Source: Escherichia phage vB_EcoM_TH18
Direction: 5' to 3' (one strand)
DNA: 64,000 nucleotides
Sequence record: ON075799
Shown here: positions 49 to 6,785 of the stretch, one piece after another
How the letters are laid out: each line of letters starts with the position of its first letter
Numbering within the stretch: position 1 is the first letter of the stretch
Made by a program: the position numbers and the translations under genes
Notes under the pieces: model-generated
Seen by the model: only the letters and a program-made list of their open reading frames with translations
What the model was told of the DNA's origin: nothing
The model's database searches: none

Positions 49-92
49 GTCCCCAAAACGGGGACATACCCATGTCCCTGAAATGGGGACAT
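49..92. repeat. Two tandem near-identical GC stem-loops (TGTCCCC-AAAAC-GGGGACA and TGTCCCT-GAAAT-GGGGACA)
   Basis: Read directly; they lie downstream of the minus-strand gene ending at 134; no clear U-tract. Confidence 0.4.
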
Positions 93-133: not shown

Positions 134-568
134 TTACTCTTCTGGTGTATCCCAATCGAGATGATTATGGAGAAACTTCCTCACGTACTCCCTTGCATCC
201 GTTTCTTGTGTGTGGTCATCTGCCCACATTTTAGCCACATTCCCAGCCGCTTCGTAGAGTTCCCTCTCAAAAGCGGTTAGTCCTGGGAGAATATTTACCA
301 AGAGTTTTTCACTCTCTGAGATATTTTGTGGGTCAAGTGTCATGCTGGGGTCAATTAAGGTTTTCCAACCAGACCCAGAAAATTTCTGTATTTCAAGAGA
401 TTTCCTTGTGCAACTTACAAAATATTTTGTGGTATCTTGTTTAAGCGACCCAAAAATAAATTTACCACCGTTCCAACTCTTCCATGATATATCTATAGAA
501 CACCCCAGAGACAGGAAGTGAATATCCACTAACATGTCGAAAACTTTTAATTTACTTTGCGTGCTCAT
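134..568 (-). CDS. hypothetical protein
   Basis: 144-aa ORF, overlaps start region of next minus gene in operon-like fashion. Confidence 0.5.
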   Translation of the reverse strand: MSTQSKLKVFDMLVDIHFLSLGCSIDISWKSWNGGKFIFGSLKQDTTKYFVSCTRKSLEIQKFSGSGWKTLIDPSMTLDPQNISESEKLLVNILPGLTAFERELYEAAGNVAKMWADDHTQETDAREYVRKFLHNHLDWDTPEE

Positions 569-1988
569 CTAAATTTACAGCCCTTCCAAAAGGTGGTACA
601 AATTTATTATTTCCGCGACCACAAATAACCCAAAGAATATCCCATTTGCGTCCCCAATCTTTTTTCTTGTGGCTTAAATCCTCTATATATCCGTCTGTAA
701 AAATAATAACGTCTTTTGCATCAAAAATGTTATTTTCAATATACTCAAAAGCTGATGCTGCAAGAGTCCCACCAGTGGAATTTACTTTATAATCAAGCAT
801 TTCCTTAATATTTTCGTGTGTATAAACTTTAACCTCTCCGACTTTTGTTGACCAACAGAACAATGTCACGCGAAAAACTCGGTAAAGCTGGCATAATCCT
901 ACAATTTCTCCGAAGATTTTGTCTAAATTTGCCTTCGAAATTGATCCAGATACATCGAAGCCAATAACTATATCTATAGTATTATCGTACTCTCTTCCTG
1001 GTAAAACGATATGCTGTTTTTTGCCGATAGCTCCGTACTGTCGAAGTGCCTGTGTCATAGATCCAGACCTACGAGATGGCTTCCTGTATGTCAGGTTAGA
1101 CTTAATCCGAGAAAGCATACGCTGTTTGATTATCTGAAGATAATTTATGTGTGGTTTACGCATCCTCGCAATAACGTCACGTACCTCTTTCGGCCCCTCT
1201 CCTCCCGCTGCTTCCATTGCTGCTTCGATAAGACCAGATGACCACGACATATTATCATCTTTTTCTGCCTGGTTTGGCACTGGGTGAGGATCTTCATATC
1301 CCAGGGTATTACTGTCCTGATCATAATCCCCTATGTGTGTACCCATAGGTTTGCCAATAGACGGTTGGCCTTTGTTTATGAGACTGTAAATCTCCTCTGC
1401 TGTCATGCCGTGGAAATTAAAATCACAATAGCAATAAGCCATAAACCCAAACTCTTTATCTTTGTCAAAGGTTGTCTGTTTCCCTGTTGGGAAGAAACAC
1501 ATCTGGGTTGAGCGCGGTCCGAGATCAGACACCACCAAATCTGTATTGATATAGTGATCCGCTGCTGTGTTGTAGGTTTTAGAATCAAATGCCTTTCCAC
1601 GGGATAGATGGTCATTTGTAATATGACGTAGCTCGTGCATAAGAATAACAACAACCTCTTTGGGTGTCTTCTTACGGTAAAATACGTTCACATAGTCTTT
1701 ATAGTCATCTTTGTCTTGTTGAGACATTGTTGGGTGGTTATCCACACGTTCAAATACCTTCTTTTTCCTTTCTTCAGGCATACCCATAATAAACTCAGGG
1801 TTGAAGTAGAGGTTTTTGTGATCAGTGGCTGCTGTTGGCAACCATTTCCAGTTCGCAACTAAAGGAAGAGAACTTAACAAAGTACCGTAGAATGGTCGGT
1901 ACTTTAAAAGAGCTATTCGTGCAGATTGGATAACTTTTACAGCATCCTTCTCTAATCTGGCAATCATTTCATATTCGTCTTTTTGCAT
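552..1988 (-). CDS. vWA-domain protein with N-terminal HExxH metallopeptidase-like domain (CobT-like partner of MoxR/CobS ATPases)
   Basis: 'HELRH' zinc-binding-like motif and 'DVSGSIS' MIDAS (DxSxS) motif; RBS GGAGA upstream of ATG. Confidence 0.65.
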   Translation of the reverse strand: MQKDEYEMIARLEKDAVKVIQSARIALLKYRPFYGTLLSSLPLVANWKWLPTAATDHKNLYFNPEFIMGMPEERKKKVFERVDNHPTMSQQDKDDYKDYVNVFYRKKTPKEVVVILMHELRHITNDHLSRGKAFDSKTYNTAADHYINTDLVVSDLGPRSTQMCFFPTGKQTTFDKDKEFGFMAYCYCDFNFHGMTAEEIYSLINKGQPSIGKPMGTHIGDYDQDSNTLGYEDPHPVPNQAEKDDNMSWSSGLIEAAMEAAGGEGPKEVRDVIARMRKPHINYLQIIKQRMLSRIKSNLTYRKPSRRSGSMTQALRQYGAIGKKQHIVLPGREYDNTIDIVIGFDVSGSISKANLDKIFGEIVGLCQLYRVFRVTLFCWSTKVGEVKVYTHENIKEMLDYKVNSTGGTLAASAFEYIENNIFDAKDVIIFTDGYIEDLSHKKKDWGRKWDILWVICGRGNNKFVPPFGRAVNLDEHAK

Positions 1989-2303: not shown

Positions 2304-2499
2304 ACATTTTTACCTTTAATTTCTTGTTACCGATATTCCACCAACTTATAGCACTAAGCTCACTCAGCGCGTGGGGTCCAGAAGTCCCGCATTTCTGACA
2401 ATAAATGTAGTGGAAAACTGTTTGCCCAGAGCGTTTCTGTTTAAGCAAAAGTGCATCATTTTTACAAAATGGGCACGGTTTTGGTAGAAAATCTTTCAT
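2296..2499 (-). CDS. Lar-like zinc-ribbon protein (putative restriction alleviation)
   Basis: 67 aa, 'PCPFCKN...CQKCG' CxxC...CxxC pattern typical of Lar family. Confidence 0.4.
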   Translation of the reverse strand: MKDFLPKPCPFCKNDALLLKQKRSGQTVFHYIYCQKCGTSGPHALSELSAISWWNIGNKKLKVKMYV

Positions 2500-3296
2500 T
2501 AAACCACCTTATTCAGCATAGCTGTGATTTTTGGTAAACTCATTTTCGTATTGATCATGAGTTGTGTTAATGCTGTTTCCATCTTTTCAGAAACAATAAT
2601 AAAATTATCTTTTGCGAACCCTAGTTCCAAATCCATAATAAGAATAGGTTTTGGTGTTTTTGTTAACTTTTCGCCTGTTAGAGAACAGGTGTTTCTTGAA
2701 TATTTAGCCTTAAATTGTGCATAAGTAACGCTAACATTCATACCTGCTTCTGCAAATGTTTTGCAGTAGTTTGCGTATGCAAGTGCAATCTCAACATCAT
2801 CAGGAAGAGATTTTTCTTTCATCTCTTCAACCTGCTCATCAATAATTACATTCTCTGTCTCTTTCATATCTTTTTCCGTAGGTATATATTTCAGTTTTAA
2901 CTTTTCCAGATGGTCTTTTGACATATTCAACATCATTCCTTGGACGATATCCATGTCAAGCGGATCTGCAATCGTTAGAGCTTTCTTTTTGTCTACAAGA
3001 AAATCTTTTAACTGGTTTGCTCTCTTACCGACTACACAAACGTTTCCACGAACATACCCTTTTTTGTCATCTATTCGTTCCACAGATGGGTAGAGAGGGT
3101 CATTAGGTGTTGCAGAAAAAGGTAGGCCTGTGTAATCACAAACACCTTTCCCAAGTAATCCTTTACCCATCATAAACCAGTCATCTTCTGTCAGATTAAA
3201 CTCTATACCCCTTGCTTTGGTATTTCTCTTTTTGAAAAAGAGTCGTGTTTTGAGATGCCTTATCTCTTTGGTTGTAAACTCTTCATTCCAGTCCAT
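2499..3296 (-). CDS. putative homing-endonuclease-like protein (HNH-type variant), free-standing
   Basis: motif 'GIEFNLTEDDW...CDYTG...PSVERIDDKKGYVRGNVCVV' resembles phage HNH-family nucleases; assignment from memory. Confidence 0.3.
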   Translation of the reverse strand: MDWNEEFTTKEIRHLKTRLFFKKRNTKARGIEFNLTEDDWFMMGKGLLGKGVCDYTGLPFSATPNDPLYPSVERIDDKKGYVRGNVCVVGKRANQLKDFLVDKKKALTIADPLDMDIVQGMMLNMSKDHLEKLKLKYIPTEKDMKETENVIIDEQVEEMKEKSLPDDVEIALAYANYCKTFAEAGMNVSVTYAQFKAKYSRNTCSLTGEKLTKTPKPILIMDLELGFAKDNFIIVSEKMETALTQLMINTKMSLPKITAMLNKVV

Positions 3297-3425: not shown

Positions 3426-4292
3426 ATGATGAAGAATCTGACGGATTATGAAGGGTGTTTTTATTTTGATGACTATCTGCGCTCCACGAGATCTAATAAA
3501 ATAGATTTTGATTATGGTGGGGTATTCCGTGAAGCCCTTATAAGGGAAGTTGAAAGTCACCAACATGAACCAAACCCTTTAATGGAAATCGTAAAACATG
3601 CTCTACTTATGTGTTTTGATACCCGAGATAGGGAATGTTACTGGAAATATTATGTTGAAGCTGACGAGCGTGCTCACATGGCAAGTGTAAACTTAAAGCA
3701 TGAGTTTCCAAGATATGATGTTACTTGTGGGCAAATAACAATCTCTTTCCGAGGCTTTAATTATGGCATGTGTTTAGCAGGATCATTGTCTGCACGAACA
3801 CAAAAATTCCTGTCTGTTTTGTCCCGATTGGGGCATTGGGATGGTAATATGTTTTCCATAAAGGCTTCCTATGTTAGAACAAGCTCGGATATTCTCCGCA
3901 TCAGGGAGATTAACTCCAGTTGCGGATCCTTTTTTCTGGCAGGTTGTTATGGAATGCTTTACCAAAGCAAGATGTATGATTATGCAGGTCATGCTGCAAT
4001 TAAGATAACCAACACGCCAAGCGTAGAGAATAAGAAATCGCACTACTACTTGGTGTGTAATACCCAAGAAGTAATGTATCATCGTGTTGTAGAAAAAGAA
4101 CTAAAAGAGCTTATCTTGGGAGAGATCCCTACCCAGGAGGAACGCTTAATGATAGAGATGGCTGGGTACAAAGGAGAATTTTTTCTTGATTCTCTTGTAG
4201 ATTTTGATAATATCGGTATAAAACCCTTTAATATGAAAGAGGCATATGAATGGTACAATCGAAGTCTGTCCCCAGTAACATTCAAGATTTAA
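3426..4292 (+). CDS. hypothetical protein
   Basis: 288-aa ORF, RBS AGAGG upstream. Confidence 0.55.
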   Translation: MMKNLTDYEGCFYFDDYLRSTRSNKIDFDYGGVFREALIREVESHQHEPNPLMEIVKHALLMCFDTRDRECYWKYYVEADERAHMASVNLKHEFPRYDVTCGQITISFRGFNYGMCLAGSLSARTQKFLSVLSRLGHWDGNMFSIKASYVRTSSDILRIREINSSCGSFFLAGCYGMLYQSKMYDYAGHAAIKITNTPSVENKKSHYYLVCNTQEVMYHRVVEKELKELILGEIPTQEERLMIEMAGYKGEFFLDSLVDFDNIGIKPFNMKEAYEWYNRSLSPVTFKI

Positions 4293-4561
4293 GACCTCAT
4301 CAGGAGTTGGCTTTAGCTATAAAGTTGGCCTCTGAAAACCATCTTAAGCAGAAAGATCGTGGTGGAATGCCATACATTCTTCACCCATTAAGGGTGATGC
4401 ATGAACTTGGTAATGATGACCTACAGCTAATGGCAATTGGTGTCCTTCACGATATTCTTGAGGATACTAAAATTACAGCTTACGATTTGGTAAGGTTAAG
4501 GAAATACCATGAAATGCATCTTAAACTTGTTGATGCAAGAAAAAGATTTGAGGGGAAATAA
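4250..4561 (+). CDS. SpoT/Mesh1-like HD-domain protein (small alarmone-hydrolase-like), short form
   Basis: 'PYILHPLRVMHELG...LMAIGVLHDILEDT' matches the RelA/SpoT HD hydrolase signature; start uncertain (overlaps previous ORF). Confidence 0.5.
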   Translation: MVQSKSVPSNIQDLRPHQELALAIKLASENHLKQKDRGGMPYILHPLRVMHELGNDDLQLMAIGVLHDILEDTKITAYDLVRLRKYHEMHLKLVDARKRFEGK

Positions 4562-4776
4562 TGAATGTTTATCAACCACATCCATTTGATCCAAAGAACA
4601 AAGCGGTGATCCACAGAGAATGGGTGGAGAGAAGGAAAACAAACTGCCCTGTTAAAGGTACAGAGGATTACAATAGGTTTTACACAGCAAAGTTTGTTGA
4701 GTATACCTTTATTAACAAAAAGGGTAAGAAAGTGCATGTTGCAGAATACCCTTTATGGATAAAATGGGAGGATTAG
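4561..4776 (+). CDS. hypothetical protein
   Basis: 71-aa ORF, start overlaps upstream stop. Confidence 0.45.
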   Translation: MNVYQPHPFDPKNKAVIHREWVERRKTNCPVKGTEDYNRFYTAKFVEYTFINKKGKKVHVAEYPLWIKWED

Positions 4777-4777
4777 G

Positions 4778-4990
4778 ATGTATTGTAAACAGCAATATAC
4801 CCACAAAGGGACAATCCAAAACAAAGATTTCGGTTGGGTGTGGGAAGAAAAGTTAAAAGATGAAGGAAACTATTGGGTATCTCAAGATATGCACTCCGCA
4901 TCGGGTAAGAAGGCAAAATACCGTAAGAGAGACGGTAAACGAGTGGGTGGTGATGATTATCTTGATTTAGAATCTATTAAGGAGTTGTAA
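4778..4990 (+). CDS. hypothetical protein
   Basis: 70-aa ORF. Confidence 0.4.
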   Translation: MYCKQQYTHKGTIQNKDFGWVWEEKLKDEGNYWVSQDMHSASGKKAKYRKRDGKRVGGDDYLDLESIKEL

Positions 4991-4991
4991 A

Positions 4992-5348
4992 ATGGCACAG
5001 TGGAAACATCGACTTGATTTACGTGATATCTGGAAAGGTAATCCAGTAGAAGGTAAGGTAGAGCCTTGGGCAGATGATAATATTCACCTGTTTGTAGATA
5101 TGCTTGTAAAAAGAGTAAAACGACTTTTACCAAAGCAAACTGATGAAGAGAATGCTGACTTCGATGGGTGGTTGTATGATATTCTTGAAGAAATGCAGCA
5201 TATCCTCACATATGAAGAATATTTGGAAATCTGTAGCAAAGAGGATAACCCCAACCTTATCGTGAGTCCTCTACAGCAGTTCAATCTGGCCTTGGATGAG
5301 TTCTACGACTGGTGCGATGAAAACAGAGTTTGGGTGGATAAGTGGTAA
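4992..5348 (+). CDS. hypothetical protein
   Basis: 118-aa ORF. Confidence 0.5.
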   Translation: MAQWKHRLDLRDIWKGNPVEGKVEPWADDNIHLFVDMLVKRVKRLLPKQTDEENADFDGWLYDILEEMQHILTYEEYLEICSKEDNPNLIVSPLQQFNLALDEFYDWCDENRVWVDKW

Positions 5349-5584
5349 AACCTCTTGATTTTTCAGAGAGAGCGGAGTATTTAAAAACCGTTGTTAGAGC
5401 GAGGATGACACGACGACAATGGTTTTTAGTTTTTGGTGCAGAAAGAGTAGATAATTTTTCTGCCAAAGACCTTGCATCAAGCATTATCAATCTGTATGCT
5501 GATATTGAATCAGCAGATATAGACAGTATCATTGAAAGTTATCTTGAGCAGAAGAACGATTTAAGGAACGAGACGAATGTCTAG
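5342..5584 (+). CDS. hypothetical protein
   Basis: 80-aa ORF. Confidence 0.45.
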   Translation: MVKPLDFSERAEYLKTVVRARMTRRQWFLVFGAERVDNFSAKDLASSIINLYADIESADIDSIIESYLEQKNDLRNETNV

Positions 5585-6785
5585 TAGAAATATTTTTGAA
5601 GATCATCGTGTTACACTCCGTGATATTCCAAGCCTTATGAAATTTTGTAAGAAGGCAAACAAAGCACTTATGATGTTTGGTGGTGCTGGGCTTGGTAAGA
5701 GTCAAGTCATGAAGCAAGTTGCCAATGAGATGTTTGGTGAACGAGATGATAATCTCGTTGATTTTCGTCTTGCGGATAAAGATCCGACAGACGTAGTAGG
5801 TGTGCAGATTCCTGTAACAGACGATAATGGGAAAACACGTACAGTCTATGCGCTACCAGATTTCTGGCCAGAAGATCCAGATTGGGAAGGCATCATTTTC
5901 CTTGATGAACTTTTACATGCTGATAACTACTTACAGAAAGTGGCTTTCCAGATTGTTTTGGATCATAAAATTGGTAAGTACACCTTTCCAAAAGGCGCAG
6001 TTTTTGCAGCGGCAGGAAACCGTCCTGGTGATGGTACGGCAGTGACCATGATGGAAGCACCTTTGGCTAACCGTTTTATTGTTGTGGAACTTGATTACGA
6101 TGCCTCTGTGTGGATGCAGGATTATGCGTTGCGTAAAAATGTGCATCCATCAGTAATTGGTTTTATCCAGGCCAATCCCGATAAACTGGAAAACTTTGAG
6201 GCCATGTATGAGATTAACAGCCCTGCATATGCCACACCACGCACTTGGGTTACTGCAAGTGATATTCTGTATGCGTATGAGGATGGTGATCTTACTTCTC
6301 GCCTTGCAATGGCTGCTTTGCAAGGGTGTATTGGTGGGCCATTAATGAAAGAGTTATGGTATTACCATACTCGCGTTGCTGGTATGGTTCCCATTGAGAA
6401 AGTAATGGACGGTTCAATTAAAGAGCATACTGGGTCTGATAGCTCTGATGTGTTGTGGACGTTAGGATCACAGGGTTGCATCTGGCTACGTAAGGCTATG
6501 AAGAATACCAACTACACAGATGATCAGATTATTGACTTCTCAGCCAATTTCTTGCAATATCTGTATGATAACTTTGGTAAAGATGATGCTCATTCCAACC
6601 GTGATTTTGTATCATCTGTCTTCATGACGTTTATTAATGACAGCTCTACAGGGAAGGGTATTTTGTTAGATGGTCTTCGTGACAGACTGCCAGCGAAGTT
6701 ACTTAAGAAGTATCCTGTTGTTATGCAGATTATTACTGAATATCATAAGAACTTTGCAAAAGATGTAGATGCAATTTTAAATTAA
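5577..6785 (+). CDS. CobS/MoxR-like AAA+ ATPase
   Basis: Walker A 'GGAGLGKSQ', Walker B 'IIFLDELLH'; size and layout of phage CobS-like ATPases. Confidence 0.7.
   Translation: MSSRNIFEDHRVTLRDIPSLMKFCKKANKALMMFGGAGLGKSQVMKQVANEMFGERDDNLVDFRLADKDPTDVVGVQIPVTDDNGKTRTVYALPDFWPEDPDWEGIIFLDELLHADNYLQKVAFQIVLDHKIGKYTFPKGAVFAAAGNRPGDGTAVTMMEAPLANRFIVVELDYDASVWMQDYALRKNVHPSVIGFIQANPDKLENFEAMYEINSPAYATPRTWVTASDILYAYEDGDLTSRLAMAALQGCIGGPLMKELWYYHTRVAGMVPIEKVMDGSIKEHTGSDSSDVLWTLGSQGCIWLRKAMKNTNYTDDQIIDFSANFLQYLYDNFGKDDAHSNRDFVSSVFMTFINDSSTGKGILLDGLRDRLPAKLLKKYPVVMQIITEYHKNFAKDVDAILN

Follow-up and report, generated by a model that had tools for sequence, protein, structure and literature searches.

An internally deleted, predicted non-functional allele of an Aph1/PbcSpo-type small alarmone hydrolase gene in a Vequintavirinae phage

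The window analysed here, a 64-kb stretch of phage DNA, is 100% identical, at identical coordinates, to Escherichia phage 18-1-2 (OK136180.1), a partial genome assigned to Avunavirus, Vequintavirinae. At 4250..4561 on the + strand lies an ORF of 103 aa with an ATG start, which carries the stretch 'PYILHPLRVMHELG...LMAIGVLHDILEDT', is annotated in OK136180.1 as 'guanosine-3',5'-bis(diphosphate) 3'-pyrophosphohydrolase', and appears from the alignments described below to be an allele of the Vequintavirinae Aph1/PbcSpo-type small alarmone hydrolase gene that has undergone an internal deletion. A Shine-Dalgarno-like AAAGAGG, read from the sequence, is found at 4236..4242 (+), 7 nt 5' of the ATG at 4250 and within the 3' end of an upstream 288-aa gene (3426..4292, +). 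This neighbour is conserved in Av-05 and PVP-SE1, and its 3' end runs into the start of the hydrolase gene, with an overlap of 43 nt in the window and in Av-05 and of 37 nt in PVP-SE1. On the other side, a TAATG stop/start overlap (4559..4563, +) joins the hydrolase gene to a downstream DUF7202 gene, a translational coupling that the in-frame deletion leaves intact. The 'thymidylate kinase' label of the 288-aa gene comes from phrog_10920 and also stands in the Av-05 and PVP-SE1 RefSeq records; no match to the protein was found in Pfam, NCBIfam, PADLOC or PDB sequences, and on these comparisons the label looks unsupported. We also considered this gene as a synthetase partner of the hydrolase, and discarded it for lack of any detectable similarity in the same four collections. 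PADLOC returned nothing for the hydrolase gene or its neighbours.

The surrounding block offers several observations of its own. The downstream 71-aa ORF (4561..4776, +), a strong match to DUF7202 / phrog_2008 (E 3e-36), has no annotation in OK136180.1, a record that skips peg.8; Av-05 and the E. coli WGS contig JZOQ01000142.1 both annotate it. The function of a 265-aa protein (2499..3296, -) is annotated inconsistently: OK136180.1 calls it 'anti-termination protein', Av-05 and PVP-SE1 have 'HNH endonuclease', and its PHROG matches include Srd-like anti-sigma / sigma-70 decoy proteins (E 1e-18 and 6e-15). A MoxR-like AAA ATPase (phrog_1297; 5577..6785, +) belongs to the same block as a DUF2201/vWA-like 478-aa gene (~552..1988, -), a MoxR-vWA pair whose conservation extends to PVP-SE1 and rV5. 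Across all 64 kb of the window, ARAGORN predicted no tRNA gene.

The 103-aa protein matches phrog_990 'metal-dependent phosphohydrolase' (E 3.3e-25) and TIGR00691 (E 1.1e-11) and, among PDB sequences, the (p)ppApp hydrolase 7SMG (E 1.3e-9, residues 21-80 aligned) and Rel/SpoT/Mesh1 (E 1e-6 to 1e-4). By these sequence comparisons, with similarity well beyond chance, the ORF is homologous to the HD-domain alarmone hydrolases. A sequence-only reading of the window had proposed such a phage-borne homologue in an ORF of about 100 aa at 4250-4561; the ORF is there, and the phrog_990, 7SMG and TIGR00691 matches uphold the homology. The profile search that this reading had called for thus recovered the family at significant scores, but left Pfam HD_4 below its gathering score (16.9 bits for the 103-aa protein and 15.8 for its full-length counterpart, against a cut-off of 27.2). 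Within NCBIfam, which holds no Aph-type model, matches were confined to the first ~70-120 positions of long RelA/SpoT models. The matching part of the 103-aa protein was always about residues 20-83, which is the first half of the family models; its C-terminal piece gave an additional, non-significant match to 7SMG, and similarity to the 7SMG protein across the whole HD domain, including the family-defining C-terminal 53 residues, was not found for the 103-aa protein. The HD motif and its upstream His are present (H45 and H67-D68, the latter encoded at nt 4448..4453), together with E71-D72. The guanine-contacting Arg-Arg-Ser of TtRel (R43, R44, S45) is replaced by D36-R37-G38.

We then compared the gene with its counterpart in Av-05, which matches a 2.2-kb region here at 91.6% identity in a stretch ~150 bases longer, and whose orthologue is 165 aa long (hereafter, this full-length form is the parent). 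Nucleotide alignment revealed a single clean gap of 186 bp (62 codons) in the window gene, in frame, with both flanks near-identical to Av-05, including the last 22-25 codons and the stop. In the parent a 10-bp direct repeat, GATTTGGTAA, bounds the gap on either side; in Av-05 as well as in the metagenomic full-length allele L006, its copies lie at positions 235 and 421 of the gene. The two copies encode Asp-Leu-Val in the same frame, lie 186 bp apart, and extend to a match of 13/14 bases. Removing in silico the segment between the repeats yields a 312-nt ORF that differs from the window gene at 11 nt when Av-05 is used and at 7 nt with L006. Three parts of the window gene (all +) can be told apart accordingly: a retained N-terminal half (residues 1-78, 4250..4483), the junction, where the alignment with Av-05 places the sole remaining copy of GATTTGGTAA (4484..4493), and a C-terminal remnant, ..RLRKYHEMHLKLVDARKRFEGK followed by the stop (4494..4561), which corresponds to the end of the parent's last helix.

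These alignments indicate that the window gene is an internal, in-frame, microhomology-mediated deletion rather than a C-terminal truncation. Over its last 22-25 residues (..LVRLRKYHEMHLKLVDARKRFEGK) the 103-aa protein has the genuine C-terminus of the 165-aa parent, so that 'truncated', the term first applied to this ORF, holds for its abnormal length but not for the manner of its shortening, and the statement that it ends soon after the HD motif has to be withdrawn: what is missing is 62 internal residues. The full-length form is ancestral because these residues align to the conserved core of the family, namely to residues 67-128 of the 7SMG protein and to the core of 45 homologues, and for the same reason we rejected an insertion of 186 bp in Av-05. 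A split or translocated gene was likewise rejected, as tblastn of the deleted peptide gave no significant match elsewhere in the 64-kb window (best E 1.7). Among 50,697 phage records the deleted DNA is present only in the two of Av-05, and it is absent from those of 18-1-2, 19-1-2 and 24-2-1. Two substitutions, M11I and K84R (K146R in full-length numbering), are specific to the 103-aa allele, both of them conservative.

The consequences of the deletion were read from structure models. An AlphaFold model of the parent, made from the full-length allele P0001 and a 46-sequence alignment (pLDDT 93.4, pTM 0.87), shows the eight-helix HD fold, with helices at 16-30, 44-53, 58-66 (plus a short 69-72), 77-82, 87-95, 104-111, 115-128 and 139-164. 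The deleted residues are 79-140 or 82-143, the boundary being ambiguous because of the repeat. Four of the eight main helices are lost: the deletion takes out most of helix 77-82, the helices 87-95, 104-111 and 115-128 and the loop that follows, and fuses the remaining stub of helix 77-82 to the last helix. The family has 28 positions that are invariant or nearly so, and five of them disappear: T97, K121, D124, N128 and R133. D124, in the KLADLKDNM motif of the parent, lines up with the Asp in 'LADRLHNM' of Rel; going by what is generally known of HD domains, it would be the fourth metal ligand in the H..HD..D set. The Asp and Asn of the (A/H)DLxDN motif (D110 and N114 in the 7SMG protein; D124 and N128 in the parent) are therefore both absent from the window protein, as they fall inside the 186-bp deletion. 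What the 103-aa protein keeps is three of the four canonical metal ligands (H45, H67, D68), the ED pair, D36, K85 and Y86.

Structure prediction had also been proposed for the short protein, and gave a four-helix AF2 model (pLDDT 81.6, pTM 0.62, with lower confidence around the junction) whose retained N-terminal half contains helices 16-30, 44-52 and 58-72. AlphaFold gives no measure of stability, and this model is not evidence of folding. Its matches cover half an HD domain at most: in a fold search it superposed on only 64-77 columns of any HD hydrolase, no match reached E 0.001, and the Foldseek match to 7SMG covered 64 columns (TM(target) 0.40, E 0.013). The eight-helix HD fold seen in the parent is not found in the model of the 103-aa protein.

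7SMG is Aph1, adenosine 3'-pyrophosphohydrolase 1 of Bacteroides caccae (Ahmad et al. 2023, PMC10083569), and it is also the closest structure to the parent. In sequence, parent residues 21-152 align with Aph1 9-138 at E 6.8e-26, as compared to E 1e-7 to 1e-5 for Rel, SpoT and Mesh1. In structure, 7SMG is the best PDB match of the parent model (target-normalised TM 0.90-0.92, rmsd 1.2-1.7 Å, 36% identity), with Mesh1 next at TM ~0.64 and rmsd >3 Å. SpoT/Rel domains and Mesh1/HDDC3 belong to the same HD-domain superfamily and share the H..HD..ED..D metal/catalytic motifs, yet their similarity to the parent is much weaker (TM 0.63-0.69, rmsd >3 Å). Aph1 and the parent are alike in being compact eight-helix HD domains without the extra C-terminal helix of Mesh1 and PaSAH, and both are phage-encoded; the guanine-stacking Arg (TtRel R43) is Asp in the window gene, likewise in Aph1. 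On sequence and model comparison, then, the parent sits nearest, among characterised families, to the Aph1-type (p)ppApp hydrolase / PbcSpo-type small alarmone hydrolase, with E 6.8e-26 and TM 0.91 against 7SMG, and the label 'SpoT/Mesh1-like' gives way to this one.

Residues were mapped between Aph1 and the parent by sequence alignment, in a numbering that agrees with D24-K25-A26 and Y90 of PMC10083569. Of the six Aph signature residues described there (D24, R96, D116, R119, K133, Y134), the parent keeps five, as D36, D130, R133, K147 and Y148, and has G110 in place of R96. Also conserved are Aph1 H33 (parent H45), H53 and D54 (H67, D68), E57 and D58 (E71, D72), D110 (D124) and N114 (N128). 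The window protein retains three of the six: D36 (Aph1 D24), in the N-terminal half along with H45, H67-D68 and E71-D72, and K85 and Y86 (Aph1 K133, Y134), in the C-terminal remnant. Measured against Aph1, the window allele thus keeps the first ~60 alignable residues and the last helix, and is without equivalents of D110, N114, D116 and R119, the last three of which align with parent N128, D130 and R133. In Aph1, N114 contacts the ribose, as the equivalent Asn does in TtRel, D116 and R119 are among the residues that set adenine specificity, and a change of D24 together with R119A confers activity on ppGpp (PMC10083569). Mutation of the HD metal centre (HD-to-Ala) inactivates Aph1 and abolishes protection, the N- and C-terminal segments build its tetramer interfaces, and the characterised small alarmone hydrolases all have at least eight helices (PMC10083569). 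The genomic settings differ: Aph1 belongs to a temperate phage, where its neighbour is a (p)ppApp synthetase toxin fused to MuF, unlike the window gene, which lies in a virulent-type Vequintavirinae genome with no adjoining synthetase.

The sequence-only reading had further suggested that a phage alarmone hydrolase could counter host defences. A small alarmone hydrolase of the PbcSpo subfamily from PVP-SE1 neutralised all five toxic synthetases tested, namely CapRel, PhRel, PhRel2, FaRel and FaRel2 (Jimmy et al. 2020, PMC7229694), and some small alarmone hydrolases reverse tRNA 3'-pyrophosphorylation (bioRxiv 10.1101/2021.04.30.441581). The PVP-SE1 protein gp220 (169 aa) shares 63% identity with the full-length allele across 160 aa, and 67% with residues 5-83 of the window protein. 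Its gene directly follows, and overlaps, the 'thymidylate kinase'-labelled gene, in a block that likewise ends in the MoxR-like ATPase, and by sequence and position gp220 can be taken as the orthologue of the window gene. Because gp220 is the sole match in the PVP-SE1 genome, it is almost certainly the hydrolase that was tested. We infer from this a counter-defence role for the parent, an idea that appears well founded for the full-length orthologue; gp220 is full length, however, and with 62 internal residues missing from the window allele the PVP-SE1 activity is not simply transferable to it; the 103-aa allele probably no longer has this role.

We next asked how widespread the short allele is. 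The exact 103-aa protein occurs in 4 GenBank accessions and 6 contigs, while full-length alleles are found on well over 100 contigs (62+17+14+8+6+4+4 and more). A separately deposited E. coli WGS contig, JZOQ01000142.1 (GCA_002972075.1), matches the window at 99.97% identity along 6.3 kb, with no difference in the hydrolase gene, and RefSeq WP_198646634.1 (84 aa) is the same allele called from an internal TTG start. The 103-aa allele is therefore real, as its presence in the separately deposited E. coli assembly attests; it is also rare, and probably recent. The two copies compared at the DNA level, from the window and from JZOQ01000142.1, are identical and offer no differences from which selection since the deletion could be read. 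A search of 1.84 billion representatives recovered 4,872 relatives, the best 150 of which are mostly 140-220 aa long. The short homologues examined among these 150 are fragments cut at the C-terminus whose sequence continues into helices 4 and 5, and none is a fusion of N-terminal half and last helix like the 103-aa protein. A natural ~100-aa 'minimal' family was rejected on this ground, the short matches having a different architecture.

A further allele, P0124 (207 aa, on 2 ENA contigs), begins as the hydrolase, through residue 134 (..DNMDVKRL), and continues as the last ~73 residues of a 118-aa protein, encoded in the window at 4992..5348 (..VKRLLPKQ..). The junction falls at a short repeat, GTAAAACG (11/12 bases), and the implied deletion of 646 bp, within the equivalent of window 4250..5348, takes the hydrolase C-terminus, the DUF7202 gene and a 70-aa gene. 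P0124 looks, from its sequence, like a second, independent deletion allele, and fits a hydrolase gene that is dispensable in some settings.

Taken together, these data lead us to regard the window gene as a loss-of-function deletion allele of a small alarmone hydrolase carried by Vequintavirinae phages, to which we assign a probability of roughly 85%; the 103-aa product is predicted from its missing residues to be catalytically dead. Against this stand an intact ORF with a good ribosome-binding site, the moderately confident four-helix AF2 model, the metal ligands, ED pair and Aph signature equivalents that remain, the survival of those terminal segments that build the tetramer interfaces in Aph1, and the persistence of the allele in at least two separately deposited data sets, where it was not instantly purged. 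That the ORF was mis-assembled or mis-sequenced and the real phage carries the full 165-aa gene is extremely unlikely: the three GenBank records do come from one study, are 100% identical here and are all partial genomes, but the same allele recurs in JZOQ01000142.1 and in WP_198646634.1, and a 10-bp repeat should be too short to collapse an assembly made from far longer k-mers or reads. Nor do we see much prospect for a minimal, still active hydrolase of (p)ppGpp or (p)ppApp working with about half the usual domain, which we hold to be very unlikely. The H..HD..ED core is intact and the similarity to hydrolase domains significant, but the protein has neither the fourth metal-ligand Asp nor the conserved Asn, lacks the helices enclosing the active site, falls short of the eight helices or more of all characterised small alarmone hydrolases, and matches only half a domain in the fold search; among the best 150 of the 4,872 relatives, homologues run to 140-220 aa and the short ones are fragments. 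Of the two options offered by the sequence-only reading, a minimal or a decayed version, it is accordingly the second that applies, an internally deleted copy of a 165-aa gene: the fourth metal ligand and near-invariant residues are deleted, and the short architecture was not found among the relatives.

A non-catalytic role would be compatible with the loss of activity. The 103-aa protein could act as a binder or sponge for alarmones or pyrophosphorylated tRNA, or as a poison subunit of full-length Aph-type tetramers of the host or a co-infecting phage. The retained termini correspond to the parts that form the tetramer interfaces in Aph1, D36, H45, H67, D68, E71, D72, K85 and Y86 are all kept, the AF2 model of the protein is not disordered, the allele is found in separately deposited assemblies, and it has its own M11I and K84R, though both are conservative. 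We nevertheless consider such a role unlikely, as there is no sign of a family with the N-half plus C-helix architecture, the loss of four core helices would expose the hydrophobic core, the rarity of the allele and the identity of the copies seen fit a recent neutral event, and P0124, a second and different deletion in the same gene, points to simple dispensability. Nothing points to a residual non-catalytic role. That the half-domain has been kept for a new function, as a non-catalytic alarmone/tRNA-pyrophosphate binder or a dominant negative against Aph-type hydrolases of the host or competing phages, is a decidedly slim prospect; were it true, it would, with P0124, mark a counter-defence gene as repeatedly remodelled or lost in the field.

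For the loss-of-function allele we propose the following course of events. The ancestral 165-aa protein would have been an eight-helix HD-domain enzyme of the Aph1/PbcSpo type, which strips the 3'-pyrophosphate from (p)ppApp and, in some small alarmone hydrolases, also from pyrophosphorylated tRNA ends, and phages may have used it to neutralise toxic alarmone synthetases with which their hosts defend themselves by abortive infection or through toxin-antitoxin systems. The 18-1-2 lineage would then have lost 186 bp when the 10-bp repeats recombined or replication slipped from one to the other, and with this segment four helices, the putative fourth metal-ligand Asp, the conserved Asn and two residues predicted to confer adenine specificity. 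As the number of lost bases is divisible by three, the gene keeps its reading frame along with its ribosome-binding site and the TAATG coupling, and the remnant therefore still looks like a tidy small gene. It probably owes this tidiness only to the chance that the repeats lie 186 bp (62 codons) apart.

The hydrolase family, its counter-defence role and the hydrolase annotation of this copy are already known. What changes is the annotation: in place of the GenBank 'ppGpp pyrophosphohydrolase', a more fitting entry would be a defective Aph1/PbcSpo-type small alarmone hydrolase allele with an internal deletion. The allele also amounts to a natural experiment, in which one Avunavirus lineage appears to have lost a gene whose orthologue neutralises toxic alarmone synthetases, and at least one further allele seems to have lost it through a different microhomology deletion. 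Such repeated loss suggests that the function is dispensable or costly on hosts without these defences.

Two observations concern the deposited sequences of this phage group. Phage contigs of the group have been deposited inside E. coli genome assemblies. In addition, assemblies repeatedly end at ~77-82 kb (79,447; 79,833; 77,392; 79,534; 80,953; 81,347; 82,179), against 121-138 kb for complete relatives, which suggests a recurrent assembly break at a repeat.
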